A DNA stretch of 64,000 bases from an uncultured Selenomonadales bacterium (GTDB taxonomy: Bacteria; Bacillota; Negativicutes; Acidaminococcales; Acidaminococcaceae), in NCBI GenBank assembly GCA_900315345.1, contig OMYP01000004.1, forward strand, positions 33,922 to 97,921. The letters are read 5' to 3'. A model generated the notes under the pieces. It did not search any database. It was not told the origin of the DNA and saw nothing but the letters and a program-made list of their open reading frames with translations. Shown here piece by piece: positions 5,492 to 57,255 of the stretch. Position 1 is the stretch's first letter, and each line of letters starts with the position of its first letter. A program made the position numbers and the translations under genes.

Positions 5492-8400
5492 TTATTTTGC
5501 GTCAATCGTTGAAATCCCCATGGTCACTTCTTCCAGTACATCCAGCAGCATCCGCACTGTGTCAAGGGAAGTGAGCATCACTGCGTTATTCTGTGCAGCG
5601 ACCTGCCGGATGGCAACGCCGTCCCCATAGTGTATGCCGGAAAGGATGGCCCGGGTATTGATGACATAACTGACGTACCCTGCACGTATCGAATCCAGAA
5701 TTTCCTGGCTTCCTTCGCTTGGCTTATGACGTATCCGGGTACGGATGCCATGCTGTTTCAGTACTTCCCCTGTTAAAGTAGTGGCTTCGATGTTGAATCC
5801 CATATTGTAGAAACGGCGGATCAGCGGCACTGTCTCTTCTTTATCTTCATCGGCCACGCTGACTACGACGGTGCCGTAGTTTTTCAGTGTCAGGCCGGAG
5901 GCGATCAGCGCTTTGTATGCGGCCCGGTGCAGTTTATCATCGTAGCCGATGGCTTCCCCGGTGGATTTCATTTCCGGTGAAAGATAGGCATCCATACCCC
6001 GGAGCTTGGAGAAGGAAAAGGCGGGAACTTTGACATAATATCGCGTTTTCTCTTTGGGGTACCGTTCCGTGATCCCCTGTTCCCGCAGGGAGACCCCAAG
6101 GATAGCCAACGTGCCCATATCGGCCAGGCTGTAACCTGTAGCTTTTGACAAAAAGGGAACCGTGCGGGAGGAACGGGGATTAACTTCGATGACATAGACC
6201 TGGTTATTTGTGTCCACGATATACTGGACGTTGAACAATCCGATAATACCGATGCCCAGTCCCAGTTTTTCCGTATAATCCAGTATCGTTTCCTTCACGT
6301 TTTCGGAAAGGCTGTAGGATGGATATACGCTGATAGAGTCGCCGGAATGGACACCGGTCCGTTCCACCAGTTCCATGATGCCGGGGACGAAGACATGTTC
6401 TCCGTCGCAGACCGCATCTACTTCTACTTCTTTGCCCCGGATATATTTATCTACAAGCACGGGTTTGTCTTCATCTACTTCTACTGCGGTTTTCAGATAG
6501 TCCCCCATATCCTTTTCTTTTCCCACAATCTGCATAGCCCGGCCGCCCAGGACAAAGCTGGGGCGTACAAGAACCGGAAATCCGATCTGGCGGGCTGCTT
6601 CCAGCCCTGCTTCAATGGTCGTGACGGCCTGCCCCGGAGGCTGGGGGATGCCCAGTGAAAGCAGAAGTTTTTCGAAGGAGTCCCGGTTTTCTGCACGGTC
6701 TATGGCATCGCAGTCTGTGCCGATGATCTTTACGCCCCGTTCACGCAGTGGTTCGGCCAGATTGATGGCTGTCTGTCCGCCCAGGGTAGCAATGACGCCG
6801 TCGGGCTTTTCCATCTCGATGATATTCATTACATCTTCCGGGCAGAGAGGCTCGAAGTACAGTTTGTCGGAACAGGTATAGTCGGTGGAAACGGTTTCCG
6901 GGTTATTGTTGATGATGATGGCTTCATAACCCGCTTTTTGGATGGTCCGGACCGCGTGGACGGTGGAATAGTCGAATTCAACGCCCTGCCCGATACGGAT
7001 GGGGCCGGCTCCCAGCACGACAATTTTTTTCCGTGAAGAAATACGGGATTCATTCTCTTCTTCGTATGTAGAATAAAAGTAGGGGATGTAACTTTCAAAT
7101 TCCGAGGCACAGGTATCGATCATTTTATAAACCGGTGTGATTCCGTTACGGCAGCGCAGTTCATAAATGTTCCGTTCCGATCTGTTCCACAGCAACGCGA
7201 TTTCTTTGTCGGAAAAGCCTGTTCTCTTTGCGCTGTGCAATACTTGCAGATCATCCGGATGGCTGCGGATTTCGGTCTCCAACGCGACGATATTACGAAT
7301 TTTCCGCAGGAAGAACCGGTCGATTGCCGTCTGGCCGGCAATGGTGTCCTCATTACAGCCCAGGCGGAACAGTTGCGCGATAGCATAGATCCGGTCGTCG
7401 GTCCCGATGCGTATGTAGTTGAGCAAGTCTTGTTCCGGTACAGCGTCAAATTTCGGCAAATGGATGTGAAAAGTGCCAATCTCCAAAGAGCGGATGCCTT
7501 TCAGCAGGCTTTCCTCAAAGGTCCGGCCAATGCTCATCACTTCCCCGGTAGCTTTCATCTGGGTGGAAAGGGAGTTATTTGCGTCTGAGAATTTATCGAA
7601 GGGGAAACGGGGCAGTTTTGTTACCACGTAATCCAGCGCCGGCTCAAAAGAGGCCGGGGTATTGGCAATCTGAATCTCGTCCAGGGTCATGCCGATGCCG
7701 ATTTTGGCGGAGACGCGGGCAATGGGATAGCCGCTTGCCTTGGATGCAAGGGCGGAGGAACGGGAGACCCGGGGATTTACTTCGATGAGATAATACTGGA
7801 AAGAGTTTGGGTCCAGTGCAAACTGTACGTTGCACCCGCCTTCGATCTTCAGTGCCCGGATAATTTTCAGGGCACTGTCCCGCAGCATATGATATTCCTT
7901 GTTGGTCAGGGTCTGGGAAGGGCAGACTACAATGGAGTCGCCAGTGTGGATGCCAACGGGATCCAGGTTTTCCATATTGCATATGGTAATGGCTGTATCA
8001 TTCCGGTCCCGCATCACTTCGTATTCGATTTCCTTAAAGCCCCGGATGCTTTTTTCAATCAGTACTTCCCGGACGGGGGAGAGGGAAAGGGCATGTTTCA
8101 TCAGAGGCAGGAATTCCGCCTCGTTTTCCGCAAAACCGCCGCCGGTTCCCCCCAGGGTGAAAGCCGGACGTAATACCACAGGGTAGCCGATCTTTTCAAC
8201 GACCTTCAGTCCCTCTTCAAGGGAACTGGCGATGTCAGAAGGCAGCACCGGTTCATTAAGTTTAGTACACAGTTCCTTGAAGAGTTCCCGGTCTTCCGCC
8301 TGTTCGATGGAATGGCTGTCGGTACCCAGCAGTTCCACATGGCACTCAGCCAGTATACCTTTCTTCTCCAGCTGCATGGCAAGGTTCAGACCGGTCTGTC

Positions 8401-8674
8401 CGCCGATGCCCGGAAGGATTGCATCCGGTCGTTCGTAGCGGATGATCTTAGCAATGTATTCCAGTGTCAGGGGTTCCATATAGACCTTATCGGCGATGCT
8501 GGTATCGGTCATAATGGTGGCGGGATTGGAGTTGCATAGGATGACTTCGTATCCTTCTTCTTTCAGGGCCAGGCAGGCCTGGGTTCCGGCGTAATCAAAT
8601 TCTGCTGCCTGCCCGATGACAATAGGGCCGGACCCTATGACAAGAATCTTTCTGAGGTCTGTTCTTTTAGGCAT
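5492..8674 (-). CDS. carB: Carbamoyl-phosphate synthase large subunit
   Basis: 1060 aa. MPKRTDLRKILVIGSGPIVIGQAAEFDYAG, duplicated ATP-grasp domains (IEVNPRVSRSS, IEVNPRSSRTVP) and a C-terminal MGS domain. Confidence 0.98.
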   Translation of the reverse strand: MPKRTDLRKILVIGSGPIVIGQAAEFDYAGTQACLALKEEGYEVILCNSNPATIMTDTSIADKVYMEPLTLEYIAKIIRYERPDAILPGIGGQTGLNLAMQLEKKGILAECHVELLGTDSHSIEQAEDRELFKELCTKLNEPVLPSDIASSLEEGLKVVEKIGYPVVLRPAFTLGGTGGGFAENEAEFLPLMKHALSLSPVREVLIEKSIRGFKEIEYEVMRDRNDTAITICNMENLDPVGIHTGDSIVVCPSQTLTNKEYHMLRDSALKIIRALKIEGGCNVQFALDPNSFQYYLIEVNPRVSRSSALASKASGYPIARVSAKIGIGMTLDEIQIANTPASFEPALDYVVTKLPRFPFDKFSDANNSLSTQMKATGEVMSIGRTFEESLLKGIRSLEIGTFHIHLPKFDAVPEQDLLNYIRIGTDDRIYAIAQLFRLGCNEDTIAGQTAIDRFFLRKIRNIVALETEIRSHPDDLQVLHSAKRTGFSDKEIALLWNRSERNIYELRCRNGITPVYKMIDTCASEFESYIPYFYSTYEEENESRISSRKKIVVLGAGPIRIGQGVEFDYSTVHAVRTIQKAGYEAIIINNNPETVSTDYTCSDKLYFEPLCPEDVMNIIEMEKPDGVIATLGGQTAINLAEPLRERGVKIIGTDCDAIDRAENRDSFEKLLLSLGIPQPPGQAVTTIEAGLEAARQIGFPVLVRPSFVLGGRAMQIVGKEKDMGDYLKTAVEVDEDKPVLVDKYIRGKEVEVDAVCDGEHVFVPGIMELVERTGVHSGDSISVYPSYSLSENVKETILDYTEKLGLGIGIIGLFNVQYIVDTNNQVYVIEVNPRSSRTVPFLSKATGYSLADMGTLAILGVSLREQGITERYPKEKTRYYVKVPAFSFSKLRGMDAYLSPEMKSTGEAIGYDDKLHRAAYKALIASGLTLKNYGTVVVSVADEDKEETVPLIRRFYNMGFNIEATTLTGEVLKQHGIRTRIRHKPSEGSQEILDSIRAGYVSYVINTRAILSGIHYGDGVAIRQVAAQNNAVMLTSLDTVRMLLDVLEEVTMGISTIDAK

Positions 8675-9767
8675 GGCGTCCCCCTTCTTTCTCCATCATA
8701 CGGATAAACTCATCAAACAGATAGACGCTGTCCTGGGGACCCGGAGCGCTTTCCGGGTGATACTGTACGCTGAACACCTTGTCCTTTTTGCTGGCAACTC
8801 CTTCCACGGTATGGTCCAGCAGGTTCACATGGGTGACCGATAAAGGCGTATGGGCAAGGCTGTCTCTGTCCACTGCATAGGAATGGTTTTGCGAAGTGAT
8901 TTCAATCCGTCCTGTCAGGAGATTTTTTACCGGATGATTGCCTCCCCGGTGTCCGAATTTCAGCTTGTATGTTTTGGCGCCACAGGCCAGAGAGATAATC
9001 TGGTGACCCAGGCAGATGCCAAACAGGGGGGCGGAGCCTATCAGTGTACGGATCGTTTTGATGGTCTGGGGCACATCTGTGGGATCGCCGGGCCCGTTGG
9101 AAATAAAAATCCCGTCCGGATGAATGGCTGAAATTTCTTCCGCAGAGGTATTCCAGGGCACAACAGTTACTTTGCAGCCGCGCCGGTTCAGGGAACGCAC
9201 AATGTTCAGCTTCATGCCGCAGTCGATGGCTGCCACATGAAACTGTTCCTTCTCTGCATGGGATACCCATGCATTTTTGCAGCTGACGCGGGATACGGCG
9301 TCTGTAGGAAGTTCATAATCCCTTATAATGCGAAGACCTTCTTCCAGCGGGGTGGAAGCGGATGTGATCAGAGCCTTGCAGCTGCCGAAGTCGCGAATCC
9401 TCCGGTTCAGTTTGCGGGTGTCGATACCCTGTATTCCCGCAATGTCATACTTCTTCATGACGGAATCCAGTGTAGCTGCACTGCGAAAATTCGAAGGCTC
9501 GTCGTTGTATTCCCGAACAATAAGCGCTCCCATACCCGGAGTGCAGGATTCGTAATCGTCTTCCGCCATACCGTAGTTGCCGATCAGCGGATAGGTCATC
9601 ACCACTGCCTGATCGGTATAGGACGGGTCAGACAGAATTTCCTGATATCCTGCCATGGAGGTGTTGAAAACGATTTCCAATACGCGCTGCCCTGTGGCGC
9701 CGAAAGTGTATCCGTAATATTCCTGCCCGTTTTCCAGAATGATTTTCCGGTTAAAATCCATTGTCAT
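8667..9767 (-). CDS. carA: Carbamoyl-phosphate synthase small subunit
   Basis: EIVFNTSMAGYQE, SNGPGDP, FGICLGHQ (catalytic Cys) and FSVQYHPE. Overlaps the carB start by 8 bp. Confidence 0.97.
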   Translation of the reverse strand: MTMDFNRKIILENGQEYYGYTFGATGQRVLEIVFNTSMAGYQEILSDPSYTDQAVVMTYPLIGNYGMAEDDYESCTPGMGALIVREYNDEPSNFRSAATLDSVMKKYDIAGIQGIDTRKLNRRIRDFGSCKALITSASTPLEEGLRIIRDYELPTDAVSRVSCKNAWVSHAEKEQFHVAAIDCGMKLNIVRSLNRRGCKVTVVPWNTSAEEISAIHPDGIFISNGPGDPTDVPQTIKTIRTLIGSAPLFGICLGHQIISLACGAKTYKLKFGHRGGNHPVKNLLTGRIEITSQNHSYAVDRDSLAHTPLSVTHVNLLDHTVEGVASKKDKVFSVQYHPESAPGPQDSVYLFDEFIRMMEKEGGRHA

Positions 9768-18676: not shown

Positions 18677-18701
18677 TAGTCACAAGTTAATATTTTTATT
18701 T

Positions 18702-19028
18702 GGCTGTGAAGAGAAGAGTACGCAGAGGAAAATGCCACAGAGAGCTTTCGGTTTGGTGCAAGAAAGCGCAGGGAACTTTGCCGAAGATGGCCTTGGAGCC
18801 GGCTGGTCGAAGTAATTAAGACCGCCCGGGCGCACCCGTTACAGTGCTGGGGTATTCAAGGAGAAGTTCCCGCGTGCCCGAGAAGCTAATCTGATAAATT
18901 TATTTTTGCTGCTCGCGGTATCAGGGGAAAGAACCCGCGTACCCGAGGAGGCCGGACGTGTGAGCGTCCGGTGAATATGGGTGGTAACACGATGCCTTCG
19001 TCCCATTTGGGGCGGAGGCGTTTTTTAT
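18702..19028 (+). ncRNA. T-box riboswitch, Met-specific
   Basis: AG box (agagag), GGTGNRA motif (ggtgcaa), specifier codon ATG at 18787-18789, T-box aatatgggTGGTaacacg at 18974-18991, terminator gccttcgtccc...ggggcggaggcgtttttt. Sits upstream of metA. Confidence 0.9.
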
Positions 19029-19130: not shown

Positions 19131-20054
19131 ATGCCGGTAAAAATCACAAACCAGTTGTCTGCAGTAGAAAATCTGCTGCGGGAAGGAATCATTGCCATTA
19201 CGGAGGAACGGGCGGTGACACAGGATATCCGTCCCCTGAAGATTCTGATCCTGAACCTGATGCCCCTGAAAAAACCGACAGAGCTGCAGTTGCTGCGTCT
19301 GTTGGGCAACAACCCCCTGCAGGTGGAAGTGGATTTTGCCCGGACGGTGACCCGGGAGACGACCCACACGGATAATTCCTATTTGGACAAGGCCTATCTG
19401 GAATTCGCGGACATAAAAGACCGTTATTACGACGGCTTCATCATTACCGGGGCGCCGGTGGAATGTCTGGAATTTGAAGAGGTGGAGTACTGGCCGGAGC
19501 TGGTGGATTATATCCGCTGGTCCCAGGATCATGTTTTCTCCGTTTTGTCCTTCTGCTGGAGCGCCCAGGCCGTGCTGTATTACTACTACGGCATTCAGAA
19601 GCATACGCTGCCACGAAAATTTTTCGGCATTTACAGTTACGGTCTGACAGTGAAGCACCATCCGCTGCTGCGGGGCTTTGACGACCGGTATTTCATTCCT
19701 CAGTCACGGCATACGGATATCGACCACCAGGCCGTGGACGCCGAACCGGATCTGAAGATACTGTCCCGTTCCGTGGAGCGGGGCATCAATATCTGCTGTA
19801 CGGAAGATATGCGGCGCATTTTTGTACTGGGGCATTTCGAGTATGACAGGGAAACCCTGGCCACGGAATACATTCGGGACAAAAAGAAGGGTATGGATCC
19901 GGACCTGCCGGAATACTACTATCCGGATAATGACAGCACGGAGCAGCCTGTTTTTAAGTGGTGCAGTTACGCCCACCTGTTTTACAACAACTGGCTGAAC
20001 ATGGTATATCAGGAAACACCCTATGATTTGACAACGCTGAAGAAAAGGGAATGA
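19131..20054 (+). CDS. metA: Homoserine O-acyltransferase (MetA/HTS family), probably the acetyltransferase type
   Basis: QDIRPLKILILNLMP, DGFIITGAPVE (Glu at the specificity position), FCWSAQA, PQSRH and GHFEY. Confidence 0.93.
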   Translation: MPVKITNQLSAVENLLREGIIAITEERAVTQDIRPLKILILNLMPLKKPTELQLLRLLGNNPLQVEVDFARTVTRETTHTDNSYLDKAYLEFADIKDRYYDGFIITGAPVECLEFEEVEYWPELVDYIRWSQDHVFSVLSFCWSAQAVLYYYYGIQKHTLPRKFFGIYSYGLTVKHHPLLRGFDDRYFIPQSRHTDIDHQAVDAEPDLKILSRSVERGINICCTEDMRRIFVLGHFEYDRETLATEYIRDKKKGMDPDLPEYYYPDNDSTEQPVFKWCSYAHLFYNNWLNMVYQETPYDLTTLKKRE

Positions 20055-20229: not shown

Positions 20230-21516
20230 ATGAGTACTTACAAATTTGAAACCTTACAGTTACACGTTGGACAGGAACAGGCAGACCCGGCGACGGACTC
20301 CAGGGCGGTGCCTATTTACCAGACCACTTCCTATGTGTTCCACAACAGCCAGCACGCGGCGGACCGGTTCGGTCTGAAGGATGCCGGAAATATTTACGGA
20401 CGTCTCACCAATTCCACCCAGGACGTGCTGGAAAAACGGCTGGCGGCTCTGGAAGGGGGCAGCGCGGCGCTGGCTCTGGCCTCCGGCGCGGCGGCGGTGA
20501 CCTACGCCGTGCAGGCGCTGGCAGCTAATGGCGGTCACATCGTGGCCCAGAAGACTATCTATGGCGGCAGCTTCAACCTGTTGGAACATACGCTGCCTGC
20601 TTACGGCATCAACACTACTTTTGTGGATGCCCATAACCTGGATGAAATTGAAAATGCAATTCAGGAAAACACACGGGCCATTTATCTGGAAACCCTGGGC
20701 AATCCCAACAGCGACATCCCCGATATCGATGCGGTGGCGGAAATTGCACATAAACACGGCCTGCCTCTGGTCATCGACAACACCTTCGGCACGCCGTACC
20801 TGATCCGTCCCATCGAACACGGCGCGGACGTAGTGATCCATTCAGCAACAAAATTTATCGGCGGACATGGTACCACATTAGGTGGCATCATCGTGGACGG
20901 CGGGAAGTTCGACTGGAAGAAGAGCGGTAAGTTCCCCAACATCGCAGACCCGAACCCCAGTTATCACGGCGTATCTTTCTATGACGCGGTAGGCCCCGCT
21001 GCCTTCGTGACATACATCCGCGCTATCCTGTTGCGTGATACCGGCGCCTGCATCTCTCCCTTCAACGCTTTCCTGCTGCTGCAGGGTGTGGAAACGTTAT
21101 CGCTGCGGCTGGAACGCCATGCGGAAAATACGAAGAAGGTGGTGGAATATTTAAGCGCCCACCCGTTGGTGGAAAGCGTAAGCCATCCGTCTTTACCCGG
21201 ACATCCGGACCATGCGCTGTATGAGAAATACTTCCCTAATGGCGGCGCCTCTATCTTCACTTTTGAAATCAAAGGCGGCCAGGAAGCGGCCTGGAAGTTT
21301 ATTGACAGCCTGAAGATATTCTCCCTGCTGGCCAACGTGGCTGACGTGAAGAGCCTGGTGATCCATCCGGCTTCTACCACCCATTCCCAGCTGACGGAAG
21401 CGGAACTGAAAGACCAGGGCATATCGCCCAGCACCATCCGCCTTTCCATCGGCACGGAGCATATTGATGACATTATTGCGGATCTGGAAAACGGGTTTGC
21501 GGCGATAAGAAAATAA
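20230..21516 (+). CDS. metY: O-acetylhomoserine sulfhydrylase
   Basis: AVPIYQTTSY, GNIYGRLTN, HSATKFIGGHG and LANVADVKSLVIHPASTTHSQL. Confidence 0.95.
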   Translation: MSTYKFETLQLHVGQEQADPATDSRAVPIYQTTSYVFHNSQHAADRFGLKDAGNIYGRLTNSTQDVLEKRLAALEGGSAALALASGAAAVTYAVQALAANGGHIVAQKTIYGGSFNLLEHTLPAYGINTTFVDAHNLDEIENAIQENTRAIYLETLGNPNSDIPDIDAVAEIAHKHGLPLVIDNTFGTPYLIRPIEHGADVVIHSATKFIGGHGTTLGGIIVDGGKFDWKKSGKFPNIADPNPSYHGVSFYDAVGPAAFVTYIRAILLRDTGACISPFNAFLLLQGVETLSLRLERHAENTKKVVEYLSAHPLVESVSHPSLPGHPDHALYEKYFPNGGASIFTFEIKGGQEAAWKFIDSLKIFSLLANVADVKSLVIHPASTTHSQLTEAELKDQGISPSTIRLSIGTEHIDDIIADLENGFAAIRK

Positions 21517-21650: not shown

Positions 21651-22583
21651 ATGGCAAATATTTACAAGGGTACCTTAGGACTGATCGGCAACACACCGTT
21701 AGTTGAAGTTGTTAACATTGAAAAAGAGTTAGGTCTGGAAGCTACAATTTTGGTTAAGCTGGAGTATTTTAACCCGGCAGGCAGCGTGAAGGACCGCATC
21801 GCCAAGGCCATGATCGAAGATGCGGAAGCGAAAGGACAGCTGAAACCCGGTTCTGTTATCATCGAACCCACTTCCGGCAATACTGGCATCGGCCTGGCTG
21901 CCATCGCAGCGGCTAAAGGCTATCGCATTATCCTCACCATGCCGGAGACCATGAGCGTGGAACGCCGCAACATTTTGAAAGCCTACGGTGCGGAAATCGT
22001 GCTGACGGAAGGGGTGAAGGGCATGAAGGGCGCCATCGCCAAGGCTGACGAGTTGGCGAAGGAAATTCCCAACAGCTTTATTCCCGGCCAGTTTGTGAAC
22101 CCGGCCAACCCGGCTGTCCATAAAGCCACTACCGGCCCGGAGATCTGGAAGGACACTGACGGGAAAGTAGACATCTTTATCGCCGGCGTAGGAACCGGCG
22201 GTACCGTAACGGGCACTGGCGAGTATCTGAAAGAACAGAATCCCAATGTGAAAGTGGTGGCTCTGGAACCGGCAGATTCCCCGGTATTATCCGAAGGCAG
22301 GGCAGGCGCCCATAAGATCCAGGGCATCGGCGCAGGCTTTGTACCGGACGTGCTGAACACAAAACTGTATGATGAGGTATTCAAAGCAGAAAGCGCGGAC
22401 GCCTTTGCGGCGGCAAAACTGCTGGCGAAAAAAGAAGGTATCTCCGTAGGGATTTCCTCCGGCGCCGCGCTCCACGGGGCTATTGAACTGGCAAAACGTC
22501 CGGAGAACAAAGGAAAGATCATCGTAGCCCTGCTGCCCGACAGCGGCGACCGTTATTATTCTACGCCGTTGTTCACAGAGTAA
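21651..22583 (+). CDS. cysK: Cysteine synthase A
   Basis: [16 protein letters not shown] (PLP lysine), [17 protein letters not shown] and [10 protein letters not shown]. Confidence 0.97.
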
Positions 22584-22638
22584 TCATGGCTTGCGCTGTT
22601 CCATAATAGGTAAGCGTTTTCATATTTTGCTACTTTAA

Positions 22639-22715
22639 GGCGGCGTAGCCAAGTGTTTAAGGCAATAGTCCGCAAGACTATCATTCCCTGTGTTCAAATC
22701 CGGGCGCCGCCTCCA
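22639..22715 (+). tRNA. Atypical tRNA-Cys (anticodon GCA), non-canonical or pseudo-tRNA
   Basis: Acceptor stem GGCGGCG/CGCCGCC with U73 and CCA. D stem GCC/GGC. Anticodon stem ATAGT/ACTAT with loop CCGCAAG. T loop TTCAAAT. Deviations: C33, G38, no GG in the D loop, bulged T stem. Confidence 0.85.
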
Positions 22716-22770
22716 AATTGATTATTTCGTGTGTTGTCTGTATTTTATATAATCCCGGGGGACAGATATT

Positions 22771-23388
22771 ATGAAAATCCCGTTGCGATACCAGATTTCT
22801 GAATACGATTGCGGGCCTACTTCGCTTTTAAATGCGATGAGCTTTCTGTTTCAGCGGGAGGAAATCTCTCCGGAACTGATTCGCAACATCATGCTGTATT
22901 CCCTGGATAGCTATGGTAGCGGTGGTGTTTTGGGAAAGAGCGGCACCTCCCGTATGGCTATGGCGTTTCTTAGCAACTGGCTGGATGGGGCAGGCAAGAC
23001 TGGAATCCTTCCCATTACAAGCAGGCATCTTTCCGGGAAGGAAGTCTGGCTTGGAAATCAAAGCCTGATTGTGGAAGCTCTTCACAGGAATGGTGCGGCT
23101 GTAGTGCGGCTGCTTTTTGAAGGCGAGCATTATGTACTCCTTACCGGTGAAAAGGAGGGATACGTTTTCCTGTTTGATCCTTATTATCTGCCGGATGGTC
23201 CGTTGTCAGAAGAGGTCGACAGTACGTTAGACCAGCATTTTCGTTATAACCGCATCGTTCCGTTTTCCTGCTTCAACCGGGAGGAAGGGCTGTACGCTCT
23301 GGGCCGCGAAGAAGACCGGGAAGCCGTGCTGATTTTTAATCAGCACACCATGCTTACGCCAGAAAAAAATATTGAGTATTTTATTTAA
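22771..23388 (+). CDS. Peptidase C39-like (papain-fold) protein without a transporter domain
   Basis: Q..EYDCGPTS (Cys), EHYVLL (His) and FDPY (Asp) form a putative catalytic triad. Confidence 0.75.
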   Translation: MKIPLRYQISEYDCGPTSLLNAMSFLFQREEISPELIRNIMLYSLDSYGSGGVLGKSGTSRMAMAFLSNWLDGAGKTGILPITSRHLSGKEVWLGNQSLIVEALHRNGAAVVRLLFEGEHYVLLTGEKEGYVFLFDPYYLPDGPLSEEVDSTLDQHFRYNRIVPFSCFNREEGLYALGREEDREAVLIFNQHTMLTPEKNIEYFI

Positions 23389-23392
23389 AAAC

Positions 23393-24460
23393 ATGAGAAA
23401 AATTATTGTGGGCATGTCCGGCGGTGTTGACAGCGCGGTAACCGCTTATCTGCTGAAAGCCGCCGGATTTGACGTTACGGGGATCACGCTGCGCACCTGG
23501 TCGGGCGCAGACGGGGAGGAGAGCCGTTGCTGTGAAATTAGCGACGCCATGCAGGTGGCGCAGCAGATAGGAATTCCGTATTATGTGCAAAACTGCGTGG
23601 CCTGCTTCCGGAAAAATGTGGTAAAACCTTTCACTTCGGCCTATCTGCAGGGCAGGACGCCCAATCCCTGTGTGGACTGCAACCGCTTTGTCAAATGGGA
23701 GCAGATGATTCTGGCAGCGGAACGCATGCGGGCGGATTATGTAGCAACAGGGCACTATGCTTCTGTGGTCCGCCTGCCTAATGGGCGGTTTACGGTACGG
23801 CAGGCTGCCTTCAGTAACAAGGACCAGACCTACATGCTGTACCGCCTGACGCAGGAACAGCTGGCCCGTACCTTGATACCCCTGGGCAGATTGAGCAAAG
23901 AAGAAGTGCGGCAGATAGCCGAGAAAGCAGGACTGCCTGTGGCGCATAAAAAAGATTCCCAGGAGATATGTTTTGTGGCCCGGGGAGGCTATGCAGAGTA
24001 TATTGCCAATGAGACGGATACGGAAATCCTGCCGGGAAATTTTGTGGATGAACAGGGCAGGGTGATCGGACGGCACAAAGGCATCATCCATTATACGGTA
24101 GGGCAGCGAAAAGGACTGGGTCTTGCACTGGGTCATCCCGCTTACGTGAAAGCGGTGGATGCGGCAAAAAATGAAGTTGTAATCGGGGACGAACAGTCTC
24201 TGTATTGCCGTGAAATACTATGCGATGAAGTGAATTTTATGAGTGTTCCTGATATCGGACCAAAGGAAAAACTGCGGGCGACTGTAAAGATCCGCTATCA
24301 CCATCAGGGGGAAGCCGCCATCATATGCCGGGATGCAGCGGAGACCGTCCGTGTTATTTTTGATAAACCGGTAAAAGCCGCGACCCCGGGACAGTCTGCC
24401 GTATTTTATGATGAAAATAACTGTGTTATAGGCGGCGGGAAGATTGAGGCGGTGATATAA
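23393..24460 (+). CDS. mnmA: tRNA-specific 2-thiouridylase
   Basis: GMSGGVDS PP-loop, CC, TPNPCVDCNR, ATGHYA, KDQTYML, DSQEICF, HYTVGQRKGLG and TPGQSAVFY. Confidence 0.93.
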   Translation: MRKIIVGMSGGVDSAVTAYLLKAAGFDVTGITLRTWSGADGEESRCCEISDAMQVAQQIGIPYYVQNCVACFRKNVVKPFTSAYLQGRTPNPCVDCNRFVKWEQMILAAERMRADYVATGHYASVVRLPNGRFTVRQAAFSNKDQTYMLYRLTQEQLARTLIPLGRLSKEEVRQIAEKAGLPVAHKKDSQEICFVARGGYAEYIANETDTEILPGNFVDEQGRVIGRHKGIIHYTVGQRKGLGLALGHPAYVKAVDAAKNEVVIGDEQSLYCREILCDEVNFMSVPDIGPKEKLRATVKIRYHHQGEAAIICRDAAETVRVIFDKPVKAATPGQSAVFYDENNCVIGGGKIEAVI

Positions 24461-24595
24461 GGATGATATTGGAGAGAAAAATAACATTAATAAAAAATTA
24501 AAGAAATACGCTTTTTTTTAACCTTAAAACATATAAATCCGATATGAAAACGGAGGTTAAAATAAAAACTGTTTTGAAGGAGACAAGAAAATAGA

Positions 24596-25411
24596 ATGAA
24601 AAAAATAATTTTACTTATCAGTTTCTTATTTATAGGTATTTTGCTTGCAGGTTGCGGCAGCGATAATAAAAAAGCAGAAAAGCCTGCCGCAAAAGAAATC
24701 AAGATTGGCGCGACGGCAGGACCGCACGCGCAGGTCGCAGAGGCAGTGGCCAAAGAGGGGAAAAAGCAGGGACTGAATATTAAGGTGATTGAGTTTTCTG
24801 ATTATATTACACCGGATAAAGCGCTGGCGGACGGTGAAATTGATCTGGTAAGCTATCAGCACAAACCATTTATGGAGAATTTCAACAAACAGAACAAATC
24901 GGATCTGGTAGCCATTGGCAAAACGATTTTGATGCGGATGGGTATTTACAGTAATAAGTATAGGGATTTGAAGAATCTGCCGGAAAATGCCATTATCGCG
25001 ATTCCTAACGACCCGACGAACGGAGGCCGCGGTCTGGTCCTGCTGGAAAAGGCTGGGCAGATTAAATTGAAGGACGGCGTCGGTTTTAAAGCCACAGCCA
25101 AAGATGTTGTGGAAAATCCGAAAAAGTTCCGGTTTAAAGAACTGGAAGCGGCTCAGCTTCCTCGCAGCCTTCCGGATGTGGACGCTGCTGTCATTACCAT
25201 GAATTACGTTATGAGCGGCGGACTGGATGTGCAGAAACAGGGACTGTTCTGGGAAACGAAGGATGAACCGCTGGCGGTTATGATCCTGGCCGTAAAGGGC
25301 AAAGATAAAGATAACGCGACCTATCTGAAAATTGCGGAACTGTTCCGTTCTGAAGGCGTGCGCAAATATATAGCAGATACCTTTAAGGGAACAATAGTAC
25401 CGGCGGAATGA
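24596..25411 (+). CDS. metQ: MetQ/NlpA-family methionine ABC transporter substrate-binding lipoprotein
   Basis: Lipobox LAGC, IGATAGPH, FSDY..P..AL, YQHKPF and IPNDPTNGGRGL. Confidence 0.9.
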   Translation: MKKIILLISFLFIGILLAGCGSDNKKAEKPAAKEIKIGATAGPHAQVAEAVAKEGKKQGLNIKVIEFSDYITPDKALADGEIDLVSYQHKPFMENFNKQNKSDLVAIGKTILMRMGIYSNKYRDLKNLPENAIIAIPNDPTNGGRGLVLLEKAGQIKLKDGVGFKATAKDVVENPKKFRFKELEAAQLPRSLPDVDAAVITMNYVMSGGLDVQKQGLFWETKDEPLAVMILAVKGKDKDNATYLKIAELFRSEGVRKYIADTFKGTIVPAE

Positions 25412-25465
25412 TCATCGGGAAAACAGAGAATTGCAATGATTCAGGCTTGTAACGGAGGAGTTCGG

Positions 25466-26833
25466 ATGGCTTCACATGTAATTGATAATCTGTTGCTGCA
25501 GGACAGTTTTGGAACAGATGAAATGAGAATGGTCTGGAATGAAAAGAACCGATTACAGAAGCAGCTTGATGTAGAACGGGCGTTAGCTGAAGCAGAGGGA
25601 GAACTGGAAGTGATTCCCCAAGAAGCTGCGGCGGTAATCGCTTCGGTTGCAGACAGCAGACGGTTCGATTTACAGGAATTGGCTCACGCAGGACTTACTT
25701 CCAAACACAGTCTGATTGCCACAATAAAAAAATTGCAGGAACTGGCTGGTACGGCAGGAGAGTTTGTGCATTACGGCGCCACGACACAGGATATTGTGGA
25801 TACCGGTACCGTGTTGCAGTTAAAAGAGGCGCATCAGATCATTCGGCGGGATTTGAAGAAACTGTTGTATAAAATGACATCTGCCGCCGCGCAATATAAG
25901 ACGGTACCAATGGCGGGGCGCACGCATGGAGTACAGGCGCTTCCCATAACGTTTGGCTTTAAGCTGTCAGTCATTGTCTGTGAACTGGGGCGGCATCTGG
26001 AGAGGCTTGAAGAACTGGAACACAGAGTGTTTGTCGGTGTGTTGTGCGGTGCTGTAGGCACATACGCTTCTTTTGATGGGAGAGGCAATGAAATTGAGGC
26101 AAATGTTATGAAAAAGCTGGGACTGGCTGTGCCGGAAATTTGCTGGCATGCATCCCGGGACCGTTTTGCCGAGTATGCTTCTGTTTTATCCTTATTAAGT
26201 GCTACCCTTGGTAAACTTGGTCATGAGTTTTATACATTGATGGCCACGGAAATTGACGAGGTAGAAGAACCGTTTTCCAAAGGAACCATTGGGTCGTCAA
26301 CCATGCCGCAAAAAAGGAACCCTGCCTTGCTGGAAGGGCTGGCAAGTCTGACCAGGCCTGTATTTTACAGTGCGGCGCTGGTACGTGAAGCAATGTTGAT
26401 GGAACATGAACGGGATGCCATGGCCTGGCGTGCAGAGTGGATTGCACTGCCGGAAATCTGTATCTATATTGCCCGCCAGCTGGGGAGCGCCCTTGTACTT
26501 TTTGACGGTTTGCAGGTCAAAACGGATAACATGCGGAAAAATCTGGATATATCAGGCGGTCTGATCGTTTCGGAAAAGATCATGTTTGAGCTGGGAAAAT
26601 TTCTGGGAAAACAGACTGCGCATGCTCTTGTATATGAACTGGCAATGACGGCACAGGAACAGGAAATCCCTTTTGCCGTGTTATTGAAGCAGAATGAAAA
26701 GGTCCGCAGATATTTGAGTGAACAGCAGATTGCCGCATTGCTGAATCCGGCTAATTATCTGGGAGAAGCGGCAGAAAAGGTTGAGCAGGTATTGGCGCTT
26801 GCGAAAGCAAAGGGATGGATGGACGGGGCCTGA
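25466..26833 (+). CDS. Adenylosuccinate-lyase-like fumarase-superfamily lyase, candidate S-(2-succino)cysteine lyase
   Basis: HYGATTQD, GRTHGVQA and the signature GSSTMPQKRNP. Context with GNAT, MmgE/PrpD and a polar amino acid ABC transporter. Confidence 0.8.
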   Translation: MASHVIDNLLLQDSFGTDEMRMVWNEKNRLQKQLDVERALAEAEGELEVIPQEAAAVIASVADSRRFDLQELAHAGLTSKHSLIATIKKLQELAGTAGEFVHYGATTQDIVDTGTVLQLKEAHQIIRRDLKKLLYKMTSAAAQYKTVPMAGRTHGVQALPITFGFKLSVIVCELGRHLERLEELEHRVFVGVLCGAVGTYASFDGRGNEIEANVMKKLGLAVPEICWHASRDRFAEYASVLSLLSATLGKLGHEFYTLMATEIDEVEEPFSKGTIGSSTMPQKRNPALLEGLASLTRPVFYSAALVREAMLMEHERDAMAWRAEWIALPEICIYIARQLGSALVLFDGLQVKTDNMRKNLDISGGLIVSEKIMFELGKFLGKQTAHALVYELAMTAQEQEIPFAVLLKQNEKVRRYLSEQQIAALLNPANYLGEAAEKVEQVLALAKAKGWMDGA

Positions 26834-26900
26834 AAGTAAAAATTATAGAAAAGCATTCCTGGGATTTTTAATGAGTCAGGGGGCAGAAAGGAAAACGAAA

Positions 26901-27392
26901 ATGAACCAGGTGTTCAGAGCACTTGAAGAAAATGATATAGAAGAATTTCACCGCTTCCTGACTGCGGCGTATGCGGAAGATTTGCAGTATGGAATTTATT
27001 TTCAGGCTGCTTTTGCTACTATAACTGATATAACAACGCATCTGATCAATAATCTCTGTTATGTTATGGAACAGGACGGGATTATTATCTCATCCTGCTC
27101 TCTGAGGATGCCCTGGGGACCAAATCCGGGTCCGGAGATATTTCCACATTTAGGATGGGTGTCGACGCGTCCGGAATACAAGCATCAGGGCTTTGGTTCA
27201 AAAATGCTGGACTGGGTAGAACAGGAGATTCTGATAAAGCAGATGAAAGCGCCGGCAGTAACTTTGGGAACTGCAGAAGAACATCCCTGGCTGATCAGGA
27301 TGTATGAGAAACGGGGATATGTTGCGTTTGAAAAACGCAGGCTTCATGAAGACCATATTACGGTTTATATGAAAAAAATATTACGTCCGTAA
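26901..27392 (+). CDS. GNAT-family N-acetyltransferase (YxeL-like)
   Basis: Acetyl-CoA motif VSTRPEYKHQGFGSKML, LGTAEEHPWL..MYEKRGY and RMPWGPNPG. Confidence 0.88.
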   Translation: MNQVFRALEENDIEEFHRFLTAAYAEDLQYGIYFQAAFATITDITTHLINNLCYVMEQDGIIISSCSLRMPWGPNPGPEIFPHLGWVSTRPEYKHQGFGSKMLDWVEQEILIKQMKAPAVTLGTAEEHPWLIRMYEKRGYVAFEKRRLHEDHITVYMKKILRP

Positions 27393-27416
27393 TAAATGGA
27401 AAAAAGGTGAAAAACA

Positions 27417-28787
27417 ATGGGGAAAGGTAAACTGACGGAACAGTTGGTCAGTCTTGTTGTCGAAACCGGTGAAACGGAAGCAAAACCGGCTTTTGCAATT
27501 GGCAGACAGGGGCTATTGGATTTTCTGAGTGCGGCCTGGAAGGGAAAAGCACAAAGGGAAACTGACCGTCTGCTGCGCTATGTTTCCGGTTCCGGACAGT
27601 CATTGCTGCTTGCTTCTGAACAGGGCGCCAGTGCCGAGCTCAGTGCATTGTATAATGGATATCTTGGACATTATCTGGACTACGATGATGTAAATCAGAC
27701 AATCAGAGGCCATCCATCAACAGTTCTTTACCCTGCGCTGTTGTCTGTGGCCTCGCTGCGCCCGGTTTCCGGCAGGCGTTTTCTGGCTGCTTATGTTATC
27801 GGCGTAGAGATAATGGCGCGGCTGGCCAGAGTAATGGGGAAAGCGCATTACCGGAGGGGGTTTCATAATACCGCAACACTGGGCGTACTGGCCGGAGCAA
27901 TGGCTGTCGGGTATCTTCTTCAGCTGGATAACGAAAAGCTGCTTAATGCAATGGGGATTGCGGCTGCGCAGGTCAGCGGGCTTCGCCTGAATTTTGGGAC
28001 AGAATGCAAACCGTTACAGGCCGGCATTGCGGCTCAGAAAGGAGTTCAGGCAGTATTGCTGGCAGAACTCGGTATTACAGCAAGTCATACTGCTTTGGAT
28101 GGAGATAAAGGTCTATTATCTTTATATGGTAACGGCATCCGGGCTGATACAGCAGAAATTTTGCTGGGTAACTGGGGGAAAAAATGGGAGTTATGCAATA
28201 CAGGCCTCTGGTTTAAGCTGTACCCATTTTGTTCAGCAGCCAGCCATATTGCAGATTCTGCGAAGCAGTTATATCAGAGGGGAGGATTTTCGCCGGAGGA
28301 AATACAGAAGGTTGCGCTGTTTTTTCCACCGGGAGGAGATGCTGCGCTGATTCACAGGCGTCCGGCAACCGGTGAGGAAGGCCGGTTCAGTGCAGAATAT
28401 GTGGCGGCGGTGGGACTGAACGGATTATCGTATACGCTGGAAAATTTCAGCTCCAAGCCGGTATCTGCTTATTTGCAGCAATTTATGGAAAGGATAGAGC
28501 GACGGTATGACGATGCTGTTATTCCTGCTAAAACCGCATTGCCGCCTGGGCGTTTTGGCATTGTGCAATTGTATTTAACAAATGGCGGCATCAGGGAAAA
28601 CCGGACAGATACGCCCAAAGGATCGCCGGGCAATCCGCTGACGGCAGAGGAGCAGTATCAGAAACTGCAGGCATGCTGTCCGGCGGAAATTGCAGAGAAA
28701 TTACCGGATGAGATTAAAGTGCTAGATAATATTTCTGACATGAGTGGTCTGATACAGATTTTAAAAACAGAAATATCTGCGAACTGA
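27417..28787 (+). CDS. MmgE/PrpD-family protein (YxeQ-like)
   Basis: GHYLDYDD, GHPS, GFHNTATLG, NFGTECKPLQAG, KLYPFCSA and GRFSAEY. Confidence 0.9.
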   Translation: MGKGKLTEQLVSLVVETGETEAKPAFAIGRQGLLDFLSAAWKGKAQRETDRLLRYVSGSGQSLLLASEQGASAELSALYNGYLGHYLDYDDVNQTIRGHPSTVLYPALLSVASLRPVSGRRFLAAYVIGVEIMARLARVMGKAHYRRGFHNTATLGVLAGAMAVGYLLQLDNEKLLNAMGIAAAQVSGLRLNFGTECKPLQAGIAAQKGVQAVLLAELGITASHTALDGDKGLLSLYGNGIRADTAEILLGNWGKKWELCNTGLWFKLYPFCSAASHIADSAKQLYQRGGFSPEEIQKVALFFPPGGDAALIHRRPATGEEGRFSAEYVAAVGLNGLSYTLENFSSKPVSAYLQQFMERIERRYDDAVIPAKTALPPGRFGIVQLYLTNGGIRENRTDTPKGSPGNPLTAEEQYQKLQACCPAEIAEKLPDEIKVLDNISDMSGLIQILKTEISAN

Positions 28788-35101: not shown

Positions 35102-35845
35102 ATGACAGCAAAACTTCTGGAAATAGAAAACCTGCATGCAGGTGCGGCAGGAAAAGAAATTATAAAAGGAATCAGCCTTTCCGTAAATACAGGAGAGGTT
35201 CATGTGATCCTGGGACCGAACGGCTCCGGAAAGTCAACGCTGATGAATGTCATCATGGGCCACCCGGGGTATATGGTGACGGAAGGGAAGATATGTTTTG
35301 AAGGAGAGGATATTTCCGGACTGCGCTCGTTTGAGCGGGCCCGGAAAGGCCTTTTCCTTTCTTTTCAGACGCCGGAAGAGATTCCGGGAATTACAGTGGA
35401 GAACCTGCTGCGCACGGCGAAACAGGCAGTGACGGGAAAGTTCCAGCGTATTTATGCGTTTCGTAAGGAACTGAAGGCGATGATGGAGGAACTGCAGATG
35501 GACCCGGCTTATGCGGAACGTGATGTTAATGTGGGGTTTTCCGGAGGGGAAAAAAAGCGGAATGAAATTTTACAGATGCTGATGCTGGATCCGAAGCTTG
35601 CGCTTTTGGACGAAACAGATTCCGGGCTGGATGTGGATGCGGTACAGATCGTTTCACGCGGCGTCAGCAAATTCCATAATGAAAATAATGCGTGTCTGAT
35701 CATCACCCATAATACGCGTATCCTGGAAAAACTGGAAGTTGACAGGGTCCATGTCCTCATTGACGGAAAAATCGTGGAAGAAGGCGGACCGGAACTGATA
35801 GAGAAAATCAACCGGAGCGGGTTTGGAAAGATTAGGGAACGTTGA
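35102..35845 (+). CDS. sufC: Fe-S cluster assembly ATPase
   Basis: GPNGSGKST, NVGFSGGEKKRNEILQ and DETDSGLDVDA. Confidence 0.95.
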   Translation: MTAKLLEIENLHAGAAGKEIIKGISLSVNTGEVHVILGPNGSGKSTLMNVIMGHPGYMVTEGKICFEGEDISGLRSFERARKGLFLSFQTPEEIPGITVENLLRTAKQAVTGKFQRIYAFRKELKAMMEELQMDPAYAERDVNVGFSGGEKKRNEILQMLMLDPKLALLDETDSGLDVDAVQIVSRGVSKFHNENNACLIITHNTRILEKLEVDRVHVLIDGKIVEEGGPELIEKINRSGFGKIRER

Positions 35846-35847
35846 TT

Positions 35848-37254
35848 ATGGAACAGAAAAAGACGTTTGTGGAAGATATTGAACGCACTCTGTATGATAT
35901 CCGCAACGAAGACCGTTCCGTGTATAAAACGGAACGAGGACTGACAGAGGAGATCATCCGGGATATTTCACGGCAGAAAAAAGATCCGGAGTGGATGCTG
36001 GATTTCCGGCTGAAATCGCTGGAGAAGTATTACCAGATTCCGCTGCCGGACTGGGGGCCGGATATTTCCGGGTTAAACATGGACGACATCGTCACCTATG
36101 TCCGTCCGGGCGGAAAGATGGCGGGGAACTGGCAGGAAGTACCGGAAGAAATAAAAGCTACTTTCGACCGGTTGGGGATTCCGGAAGCGGAACGAACCTC
36201 TTTGTCAGGCGTAGGCGCCCAATACGATTCGGAAGTGGTGTATCACCGGGTGCAGAAAGAACTGAGCGACCAGGGTGTCATCTATACGGATTTTGAAACG
36301 GCGGTGCACGAATACGAAGATATTGTGAAAGAATATTTTATGAAGCTTGTACCGCCAAAAGATCATAAGTTCGCCGCGCTGCACGGGGCGGTCTGGTCTG
36401 GCGGTTCCTTTGTGTATGTGCCGGAGGGGGTGCATGTGGATATTCCGCTACAGTCCTATTTCCGCCTGAATGCAGCGGGAGCAGGCCAGTTTGAACACAC
36501 GCTGATCATCTGCGAAAAGAATTCCAGCCTCCACTTTATTGAAGGCTGCAGCGCTCCCCGTTATAACGTAACGAATCTGCACGCCGGCTGCGTGGAACTG
36601 TATGTAAAAGAAGGGGCGCGGTTGCGGTATTCCACCATTGAGAACTGGTCGCGCAACATGATGAACCTGAATACCAAGAGGGCGCTGGTAGAGAAGGATG
36701 GCCTTATCGAATGGGTGTCGGGGTCTTTTGGTTCCCGTGTTTCGTGTCTGTATCCCAGCAGCATTTTGCACGGGGAGAACGCCCGCTGCGAATTTACCGG
36801 CGTTACCTTTGCCAGCCGGGGACAGGATTTGGACACGGGGGCGACGGTGGTTATGCTGGCGCCAGGTACCAGCGCCAATATCAATACCCGGACAATTTCC
36901 AAATCCGGCGGCGCGGCTACCTACCGCAGCGCCGTAAAGGTGGCCCCCGGGGCCCGGGGGGCGAAATGCCTGGTCAATTGCGAATCGCTGCTGTTGGATG
37001 AAAAGAGCCGCAGCGATACGCTGCCGGTGATGGATATTGAAACCGACGAAGTAGAAATAGGACATGAAGCAAAAATCGGACGCATCAGCGATGAAGCGAT
37101 TTTTTACCTGACCAGCCGGGGCATTGGGGAAGAAGAAGCCCAGGCCATGATCGTGCGCGGATTTGTAGAACCGGTAGCCAAAGCGTTGCCGTTGGAGTAT
37201 GCCGTGGAAATGAACAATCTGATCAATATGGAGCTGGTGGGAGGTATGGGATAA
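35848..37254 (+). CDS. sufB: Fe-S cluster assembly scaffold protein
   Basis: GAQYDSEVVY, AVWSGGSF, GQFEHTLI, EGCSAP, YSTIENW and HEAKIGRI. Confidence 0.96.
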   Translation: MEQKKTFVEDIERTLYDIRNEDRSVYKTERGLTEEIIRDISRQKKDPEWMLDFRLKSLEKYYQIPLPDWGPDISGLNMDDIVTYVRPGGKMAGNWQEVPEEIKATFDRLGIPEAERTSLSGVGAQYDSEVVYHRVQKELSDQGVIYTDFETAVHEYEDIVKEYFMKLVPPKDHKFAALHGAVWSGGSFVYVPEGVHVDIPLQSYFRLNAAGAGQFEHTLIICEKNSSLHFIEGCSAPRYNVTNLHAGCVELYVKEGARLRYSTIENWSRNMMNLNTKRALVEKDGLIEWVSGSFGSRVSCLYPSSILHGENARCEFTGVTFASRGQDLDTGATVVMLAPGTSANINTRTISKSGGAATYRSAVKVAPGARGAKCLVNCESLLLDEKSRSDTLPVMDIETDEVEIGHEAKIGRISDEAIFYLTSRGIGEEEAQAMIVRGFVEPVAKALPLEYAVEMNNLINMELVGGMG

Positions 37255-37257
37255 ACA

Positions 37258-38151
37258 ATGACACAGGACATTTTCAGTGAAATCCCACTGCGAACTTGGC
37301 GTTGGCTGGGAGTAAACGAAGCGCTGCTGCCAGAGGAATTGCAGCAGGTTCCGAATGACTTATCAAATAAAAACACGCAAAGCTTTCCGGAAAAGCTGCC
37401 GTGGGAAATGCCGGAACAAATTTCTGTTCCGGCCGGGGAAACGGTAGAAAAAATATTTGTGTTTCGCAGTGAACAGGTTACGAATATCCGGGCTGAGGTT
37501 GCTAGGGGCGGCACCCTGAACCTGATTTGCATCCAGCTATTGCCTACAGATAAAGCCTACGCTGGTAAAGTCTTGGTCACAGCAGGGGAGAAGGCAAAAA
37601 TAAATTATACTGCAGTAGAAGTGGGAGCCGTCCATACGCTGACCAATTTGCAGATTGAGCTGGACGGAAACGGGTCGGCCGCAGATGTGGCGGCAGTGTA
37701 TTTCGGAGATGCTGACCGCAGGCTTGACCTGAATTATGTGATTACCCACAAGGGAACAGACACAGACGCGGATATGCAGGTGCGGGGCGTTTTACAGGAT
37801 GCCAGTGACAAAATTTTCCGGGGTACCCTGGATTTCCGTCAGGGAAGCAGGGGCAGCGTCGGCAGGGAAAAGGAAGAGGTGATCCTGTTGAACGAGGGAA
37901 TCCGCAACCGCAGCGTCCCGCTTATGCTAGCGCAGGAAGACGCGGTGAACGGGCAGCATGCCGTAAGCGCTGGCCATATGGACCGGGATAAACTGTTTTA
38001 CCTGATGAGCCGCGGGCTGGATGAGAAGGAAGCCCGGAAGCTGGCGGTGGGCGCTTTGTTCGCCACGGTACTGGAACGGGTTCCCGATGCGGATCTGAGA
38101 GAGGAGATCAGCAGAGAGGTTGAGGAGCGGATCGAACATGGACAACGTTGA
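37258..38151 (+). CDS. sufD: SufD-family Fe-S assembly protein (short form)
   Basis: FRGTLDF, SVPLMLA.ED.V.GQHAVSAG and FYLMSRGL. Located between sufB and sufS. Confidence 0.88.
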   Translation: MTQDIFSEIPLRTWRWLGVNEALLPEELQQVPNDLSNKNTQSFPEKLPWEMPEQISVPAGETVEKIFVFRSEQVTNIRAEVARGGTLNLICIQLLPTDKAYAGKVLVTAGEKAKINYTAVEVGAVHTLTNLQIELDGNGSAADVAAVYFGDADRRLDLNYVITHKGTDTDADMQVRGVLQDASDKIFRGTLDFRQGSRGSVGREKEEVILLNEGIRNRSVPLMLAQEDAVNGQHAVSAGHMDRDKLFYLMSRGLDEKEARKLAVGALFATVLERVPDADLREEISREVEERIEHGQR

Positions 38152-57235: not shown

Positions 57236-57255
57236 ATCAAAAATTAAATAGCATT

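Follow-up and report, generated by a model that had tools for sequence, protein, structure and literature searches.

A tRNA-Cys-like RNA and a C39-like gene as a probable transcription unit among the sulfur-amino-acid genes of a rumen Acidaminococcaceae-like bacterium

The DNA analyzed here, referred to as the window, is a stretch of 64,000 nucleotides (64 kb) from an uncultured Selenomonadales bacterium (contig OMYP01000004.1). The element under study is an atypical RNA derived from tRNA-Cys(GCA), which lies together with the gene of a stand-alone C39-fold (papain-like) protein between cysK, encoding cysteine synthase A, and mnmA, encoding tRNA 2-thiouridine(34) synthase. A preliminary description had placed these four elements on one strand with no obvious terminator between them, and had suggested that the C39-like protein may pass sulfur from Cys-tRNA to an MnmA paralogue, or that the tRNA may regulate the locus. 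The arrangement itself was borne out: all four elements lie on the plus strand (Table 1), the ATG of mnmA at position 23393 is 4 nt past the C39-like stop at position 23388, and no terminator-like sites were predicted in the intergenic gaps. The order metA, sulfhydrylase gene, cysK, RNA, C39-like gene, mnmA was unchanged in at least six independent assemblies of the species of the window, and the contigs that combine this order with an identical CysK protein number at least 22. We are nevertheless quite confident that the four genes do not function together as a sulfur relay, and that what is conserved is the transcription unit of the RNA and the C39-like gene, which is set amid cysteine and methionine genes. 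That this pair is a real transcription unit is likely.

The tRNA-like element at positions 22639-22715 was missed both by ARAGORN and by Rfam with default filters. With permissive filters, Infernal matched it over its full length to RF00005 at the score given in Table 1, above the gathering score of 29; by the same scoring, canonical tRNA-Cys reached 66-72 bits and the copies of the atypical RNA from two relatives 43.8 bits. The RNA retains U73, the anticodon GCA and an encoded CCA (3' end ...CGCCGCC-U-CCA), which are the identity elements of cysteinyl-tRNA synthetase (CysRS), together with a perfect 7-bp acceptor stem and the A13-A22 mismatch. The preliminary description had called the tRNA odd, and its atypical features, namely C33, a possible C32-G38 pair, a D loop without GG and a bulged T-stem U, were all verified. 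The anticodon loop reads CCGCAAG, with C33 instead of U33, and pairing of C32 with G38 gave a 6-bp anticodon stem and a 5-nt loop in RNAfold. The D loop of the window copy is AGUGUUUA, in which U19 replaces G19; written with its variable base, the loop is AG(U/C)GUUUA. The G18G19 that makes the elbow contact with the T loop is therefore missing. The bulged U of the T stem sits between pairs 52:62 and 53:61, and the stem is not a continuous 5 bp; a change from G-U to A-U in a relative backs this pairing. As a yardstick, a metagenome scan for tRNAs sharing the first 15 nt returned at least 120 sequences, 112 of which were complete tRNA-Cys. Among the matches listed, these tRNA-Cys were all canonical and came from unrelated habitats, which makes them uninformative on rumen copies; the loop CTGCAAA was found in 112 of 112, a clear D-loop GG in at least 109 of 112 and the T-stem bulge in none of the 112, and the nearest canonical sequence was identical to the atypical RNA at 66 of 77 positions.

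The copies of the atypical RNA in relatives were 94-100% identical, while their flanks diverged. In locus L001, from an Acidaminococcaceae metagenome-assembled genome, 75 of 77 positions were identical, whereas the surrounding intergenic DNA contained several indels and many substitutions. Seven distinct versions were found across relatives, five of which were formally aligned. They differ in one D-loop base, one variable-loop base, one broken terminal pair, one change of G15, a T-stem G-U that became A-U, and a fully compensatory change from U-A to C-G in the anticodon stem (pair 28:42), while C33, U19, the T-stem bulge, GCA, U73 and CCA are constant in all seven. In the alignment of five distinct sequences, 99% of the cells were paired, and covariation statistics were not significant with this number of sequences. 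The contrast with the flanks argues for an RNA that is under selection, conserved rather than decaying. On balance, we favour the view that it is a chargeable but non-decoding derivative of tRNA-Cys and not the working tRNA-Cys of the cell. A phage or mobile origin found no match in IMG/VR, and phage records gave weak, generic tRNA matches only. Two hairpins were also seen near the RNA in relatives. One, the conserved AATAACGAG...TTCGTTATT, lies just 5' of the RNA in L001 (1590-1660), L081 (120-163) and L082 (410-455) and is not present in the window. The other, GGAACTGT...ACAGTTCC with TTTCT behind it, occupies the spacer between RNA and C39-like gene of L001, L081, L082 and L215 and is not present in the window, L084 or L214.

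The gene neighbourhood of the pair was compared in a close clade, defined by C39-like genes at least 80% identical and comprising 17 contigs in about eight contexts (among them L001, L081-L085 and L207-L216); 16 further contigs came from look-ups with near relatives of the C39-like protein (80-83% identity) and with the exact CysK. The atypical RNA was found 55-90 nt 5' of the C39-like gene in 17 of 17 contigs of the clade, but in none of about 80 more distant homologues. The tie between the C39-like gene and a tRNA-Cys variant, suggested by the preliminary description, was thus seen within this clade and not among the more distant homologues. Among the homologues at 73% identity or less that lack the RNA, iscU overlaps the start of the C39-like gene in L086, and in L217 the C39-like gene has an aminotransferase gene upstream and an M20 peptidase gene downstream. 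What surrounds the pair is variable. Upstream of it lies cysK in the window species, L001, L082, L085 and L213, a Hint-domain gene in L084, non-coding DNA in L081, and a divergent radical-SAM gene in L214 and L215. Downstream of it lies mnmA in the window species and L001, fpg in L081 and L082, an asparaginase gene in L084 and L085, a PhzF-like gene in L214 and L215, and an ammonium transporter gene in L213. At least six rearrangements therefore fall beside the pair, whereas its two members were never split; the chance of no break inside the pair is about (2/3) to the power of 6-7, or 6-9%, as a rough estimate in which the three junctions are assumed to be equally likely targets.

The organization of transcription in relatives agrees with a two-gene unit. 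In L214, a promoter-like site (TTGATT-17-TAAAAT) with an extended -10 TG is found 42 nt 5' of the RNA, the C39-like stop codon is directly followed by a predicted terminator in the form of a G+C-rich 12-bp hairpin and a run of T, and the gene after the pair has a promoter-like site of its own. These predicted signals show the pair in L214 as a putative closed unit of promoter, RNA, C39-like gene and terminator. The cysK stop and the RNA are just 9-13 nt apart in L085 and in the organism that dominates run X38, too close for a promoter to fit between them, so that the RNA must be transcribed with cysK there. The data show a linkage of the RNA and the C39-like gene at the level of the operon; they do not show that the enzyme acts on Cys-tRNA. 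We are inclined to see the link as one of expression only and not as that of an enzyme and its substrate.

The C39-like protein is encoded by a single open reading frame of 205 aa with C14, H120 and D136 as well as Q8, in agreement with the earlier assignment as a stand-alone papain-fold protein with a Cys/His/Asp triad. All four residues are invariant in an alignment of 28 homologues. The only family-model match of the protein was PF13529, below the cut-off (Table 1), and it had no match in NCBIfam or PADLOC; a defence system was rejected as there was no PADLOC match for the protein. The AlphaFold model (pLDDT 85, pTM 0.85) was most similar in Foldseek to the C39 peptidase domains of PCAT1 and ComA (E about 1e-4). 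Weaker fold matches were obtained with CtaG/BtrH-type proteins, which also gave the only, marginal, sequence matches in the Protein Data Bank (PDB). About 1975 clusters of homologues exist, named 'peptidase C39' by NCBI, with hosts in Selenomonadaceae, Acidaminococcaceae, Lachnospiraceae, Oscillospiraceae and Faecalibacterium. The median isoelectric point (pI) of the family is an acidic 5.0; the protein of the window has a pI of 5.05 and a net charge of -9, and the tRNA-linked clade is not more basic than the remaining family. We infer from this a cytoplasmic enzyme of the Cys-His-Asp type that acts as a hydrolase or acyl-transferase.

Family-wide neighbourhoods were analyzed in 80 fetched genome loci with C39-like homologues, and genes were called around the 76 with a complete open reading frame; neighbours were counted within four genes of the C39-like gene. 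The most frequent neighbour was a PepT-like M20 peptidase gene (TIGR01883; 22 loci, mostly directly adjacent), followed by genes for a Cys/Met pyridoxal-phosphate (PLP) lyase (13 loci), cysK (nine), genes for a PatB-family C-S lyase and for HydE (six each), an EgtC-like class-II amidotransferase (five), a Glu-Cys-ligase-like protein (three) and iscS-iscU (three). A sulfur-amino-acid gene, a PepT-like gene or both were present in 34 of the 76 loci. In L004, L005 and L086, the last of which is outside the 76, iscS-iscU is close to the C39-like gene without mnmA. These neighbours place the family with cysteine and small-peptide metabolism and not with tRNA thiolation. As judged by gene neighbourhood, the C39-like protein would most likely hydrolyse, or act as a transferase on, a small peptide or amide that contains cysteine or is of the gamma-glutamyl type. 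No riboswitch or T-box was found near the C39-like gene in 12 other loci. A recurrent set of four genes was seen in Lachnospiraceae, in the order EgtC-like amidotransferase, C39-like, PepT-like M20 and Glu-Cys-ligase-like genes (L025, L033, L037 and L029, about 5200-9200); it looks like a pathway that would make or break a gamma-glutamyl-cysteine-type compound. The [FeFe]-hydrogenase maturase gene hydE was observed two genes 5' of the C39-like gene in L052, L055, L064, L065, L066 (about 3800-4850) and L032, and adjoins the PepT-like gene in five of these six loci for no apparent reason.

The mnmA gene gave a different picture. The MnmA of the window aligns end to end with the solved MnmA structures 9hln, 2hma and 2der and carries SGGVDS (PP-loop), NPCVDCN and SQEICF, with the CxxC...C variant of the catalytic motif; as judged from these motifs, it is a full-length canonical enzyme. 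Its NPCVDCN (CxxC) stands against NPDVMCN in the solved chain 9hlv, and binding of an iron-sulfur cluster has been reported for MnmA enzymes of the Cys type. The preliminary description had named the absence of an association with mnmA as part of what would refute its proposal, and mnmA adjoined the C39-like gene in only one of the 76 genome loci (L001), which is also the only one of them with the atypical RNA. A specialized MnmA fed with sulfur by the C39-like protein likewise agrees poorly with the canonical MnmA and with the five kinds of downstream gene in the close clade. In run X38, a 15-kb contig at a depth of 95 carries an mnmA 98.6% identical to that of the window, with unrelated DNA from 6 nt 5' of its start. 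The synteny data and the presence of this mnmA in different upstream DNA mark mnmA as a bystander, and we consider it very probable that the gene is a chance neighbour and no part of the unit. The X38 relative (depth about 95) shares the 3' end of the sulfhydrylase gene and mnmA with the window and differs after position 21508 and before position 23387, which points to strain-level rearrangement around the locus.

The remaining features of the locus are listed in Table 1. The specifier loop of the T-box leader, aligned to the Rfam consensus, reads GAA-G-AUG-G and thus presents a Met codon, consistent with the metA and sulfhydrylase genes downstream; this AUG specifier rules out the T-box as a reader of the atypical tRNA-Cys. 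No second copy of mnmA, the C39-like gene, cysK or the RNA was found within the 64-kb window. Behind metQ lie genes for a PurB-like lyase, a GNAT acetyltransferase and an MmgE/PrpD protein (25436-28787; also 9816-12933 in L207), which form with the upstream genes a long run of sulfur-amino-acid-related genes. A match resembling a PyrR binding site at positions 57253-57356 scored 45.4 bits, under the gathering score of 54.

Table 1. Positions of the features discussed, numbered from the first nucleotide of the window
Feature	Position	Strand	Model match or remark
T-box leader with Met (AUG) specifier	18697-19008	+	Rfam RF00230, 95.5 bits (gathering score 93); 5' of metA and the O-acetylhomoserine sulfhydrylase gene
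Terminator hairpin of the T-box leader	18991-19022		
metA, homoserine O-acyltransferase	19131-20054	+	Pfam HTS, 395 bits; 307 aa in same-species contigs
O-acetylhomoserine sulfhydrylase (Cys/Met PLP enzyme)	20230-21516	+	Pfam Cys_Met_Meta_PP, 450 bits
cysK, cysteine synthase A	21651-22583	+	TIGR01139, 448 bits (cut-off 351)
Atypical tRNA-Cys(GCA)-derived RNA	22639-22712, encoded CCA to 22715	+	Rfam tRNA, 42.7 bits
Stand-alone C39-fold (papain-like) protein, 205 aa	22771-23388	+	Pfam PF13529 (Peptidase_C39_2), 20.9 bits, under gathering score 24
mnmA, tRNA 2-thiouridine(34) synthase	23393-24460	+	NF001138, 404 bits (cut-off 284)
metQ-like methionine-binding lipoprotein gene (context)	24596-25411	+	Pfam Lipoprotein_9, 290 bits
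sufB-sufD-sufS-sufU operon	35842-39807		15 kb downstream of mnmA; followed by a convergent panF-like symporter gene; without adjoining mnmA

Taken together, we think it somewhat more probable than its alternatives combined that the locus is a stretch of sulfur-amino-acid genes of a rumen Acidaminococcaceae-like bacterium in which the pair of RNA and C39-like gene is kept and mnmA is incidental. The C39-like gene would have no promoter of its own and would be expressed from the promoter of the tRNA gene or by read-through from cysK. If it depends in this way on transcription through the RNA, a break between the two would silence the gene, which would explain why rearrangements never separate the pair. 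RNase P and 3' trimming would free the RNA from the transcript, and CysRS could probably charge it because U73, GCA and CCA are retained, although the atypical RNA would be ill-suited to decoding. Within cysteine salvage, the substrate of the C39-like protein would be a small peptide or amide, either cysteine-containing or of the gamma-glutamyl type. MnmA would carry out its usual thiolation of U34 and draw the sulfur from a desulfurase whose gene lies elsewhere, such as SufS-SufU 15 kb away.

RNA-Seq contigs from two metatranscriptome runs span positions 22520-24462 and 22672-24462 without a break, which is consistent with the pair being read through from cysK into mnmA in the species of the window, although such libraries may include DNA. 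Several observations weigh against this interpretation. Contig depths gave no sign of an enrichment of RNA over DNA for the tRNA stretch. Neither a sulfur-amino-acid gene nor a PepT-like gene was present in 42 of the 76 C39-like loci. In rumen metagenomes, the word depth of the tRNA stretch was 4-10 times that of its flanks, with several different upstream sequences, and two copies of the RNA, on separate contigs at a chromosomal depth of about 98, belong to the dominant organism of run X38. These copies in other contexts indicate that the RNA also occurs apart from the C39-like gene, and the complete linkage of the two was measured from the side of the C39-like gene only. Finally, no canonical tRNA-Cys was found within the 64-kb window; if the genome contains none, the atypical RNA must decode.

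The last point leads to an ordinary decoding tRNA, in which the RNA would be the working tRNA-Cys isoacceptor of the clade, its odd features would be tolerated, and the C39-like gene would use its promoter by chance. The very high conservation of the RNA, the intact U73, GCA, A13-A22 and CCA, the raised depth and varied contexts in rumen metagenomes, and the two X38 copies at chromosomal depth all speak for it. Nevertheless, we regard this explanation as unlikely, because C33, the C32-G38 pair, the loss of G19 and the T-stem bulge are each near-universally avoided, and the Rfam score falls some 25 bits short of those of canonical tRNA-Cys. When canonical tRNA-Cys was compared with run X38, many canonical-type contigs were found, the sums of which hint at one of high depth in a mixed sample: at L134 position 1098, three contigs with a summed depth of 189 show a letter absent from the atypical RNA, which hints at an abundant canonical tRNA-Cys. 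The RNA could otherwise stay in the mRNA as a cis-regulatory leader whose tRNA-like fold tunes expression of the C39-like gene to cysteine, through binding of CysRS or the rate of RNase P cleavage. This would suit its constant position 5' of the start codon in every context, the predicted promoter before the RNA in L214 with none predicted between RNA and gene, and the unprocessed read-through contigs. The spacer from the RNA to the ribosome-binding site, however, is poorly conserved and variable in length, the conserved CCA and U73 suit a released tRNA better, and copies occur in other contexts; moreover, we know of no precedent for a complete tRNA as a cis sensor, and such a leader appears improbable.

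A further explanation assigns the RNA and the enzyme to each other. The CysRS-charged RNA, kept off EF-Tu and the ribosome, would be a dedicated cysteinyl carrier, from which the C39-like enzyme would take the cysteinyl group onto C14 as a thioester before transferring or hydrolysing it; relatives without the special tRNA would then use ordinary Cys-tRNA. The identity elements and CCA are kept while three decoding or elbow elements are altered and conserved, the linkage is strict over about eight contexts with a putative closed two-gene unit in L214, and the family belongs to a cysteine-metabolism context. Papain-fold relatives of the CtaG/BtrH type make amide bonds from carrier-bound acyl groups, although the fold match is weak, and as a parallel, G18G19 is also missing from the non-proteinogenic tRNA-Gly of Staphylococcus aureus. 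On the other hand, about 80 distant family members have no tRNA partner, the tightest partner of the family is the PepT-like peptidase, which points to peptide substrates, the protein is acidic without a shift to basic in the tRNA-linked clade, and other copies of the RNA exist away from a C39 sequence like that of the window. We therefore hold a dedicated carrier to be a long shot, and there is an equally slim chance that the C39-like protein represents a novel type of papain-fold transferase or hydrolase, one that depends on aminoacyl-tRNA and serves cysteine or low-molecular-weight-thiol metabolism. The module of the preliminary description would add mnmA to such a scheme, with the C39-like protein passing sulfur from Cys-tRNA to a specialized MnmA paralogue and all four genes acting together. 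It is in keeping with the common strand, the 4-nt gap, the read-through contigs and a gene order that is stable within the species and in L001. Synteny has largely refuted it: the adjacency to mnmA is missing in 75 of the 76 family loci and in most of the close clade, the MnmA is canonical, and a near-identical mnmA lies in X38 without a C39-like gene upstream. The sulfur used by MnmA comes as persulfide from a cysteine desulfurase, and the genes of SufS-SufU are close by. This module is hardly credible. We thus retain the interpretation of an RNA/C39-like pair maintained among sulfur-amino-acid genes with mnmA as a bystander.

The pair brings together two poorly understood components. The RNA is a tRNA-Cys derivative that appears to be under strong purifying selection, with its charging signals kept and three near-universal decoding features lost; to our knowledge, few such tRNAs are known in bacteria, and each one characterized led to a non-ribosomal or regulatory role. 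The protein belongs to a large, highly conserved and uncharacterized family of putatively cytoplasmic C39-fold proteins in gut and rumen Firmicutes, with about 2000 clusters, whose neighbourhoods point to cysteine or gamma-glutamyl-peptide metabolism, a field of which little has been mapped for strict anaerobes. Their constant association within a single clade offers a concrete, testable handle on both RNA and protein. A literature search for a link between tRNA and C39, cysK and tRNA, or C39 and thiols, and for Succiniclasticum tRNA, returned nothing relevant.

The locus can be compared with several known systems. The C39 bacteriocin peptidases PCAT1 and ComA, the best structural matches, share the papain fold, the oxyanion Gln and the Cys, His and Asp residues with the C39-like protein, but the latter is stand-alone, probably cytoplasmic, 205 aa long, below the Pfam cut-off and without an ABC transporter; no double-glycine peptide genes were seen in its neighbourhood, where no systematic search for them was made, and its neighbours in the 76 loci are metabolic enzymes. 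The pairs of a desulfurase with MnmA (yrvO-mnmA and iscS-iscU-mnmA) have in common with the window a canonical mnmA in a sulfur-metabolism neighbourhood, but no desulfurase gene lies beside the mnmA of the window, sufS-sufU being 15 kb away. Systems that degrade gamma-glutamyl or Cys-containing peptides (the yeast DUG pathway, EgtC and PepT-type M20 enzymes) resemble the Lachnospiraceae loci, in which the C39-like gene is flanked by EgtC-like, PepT-like and Glu-Cys-ligase-like genes. This likeness is confined to gene neighbourhood: those systems have no equivalent of the C39-like protein, and none of these genes lies beside the copy in the window. The selC* tRNA-Cys (Mukai 2017, reviewed in PMC7609411) also has U73, a GCA anticodon and an unpaired T-stem base. 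The RNA described here, however, lacks the long variable arm, and its acceptor, anticodon and D stems of 7, 5 and 3 bp depart from the Sec-like 8/4 arrangement, and this architecture rules out a tRNA-Cys of the selC* type; neither cysS* nor selB* was seen in the loci examined. In principle, the RNA resembles the non-translational tRNAs, the non-proteinogenic tRNA-Gly of S. aureus and tRNA-Other of Bacillus cereus (PMC3399842), which have likewise kept the acceptor end and identity, lost universal elements such as G18G19 and remained conserved. The RNA of the window, a putative non-decoding tRNA, differs from them in its Cys identity, in C33 with the C32-G38 pair, in the T-stem bulge and in its probable co-transcription with a papain-fold gene.

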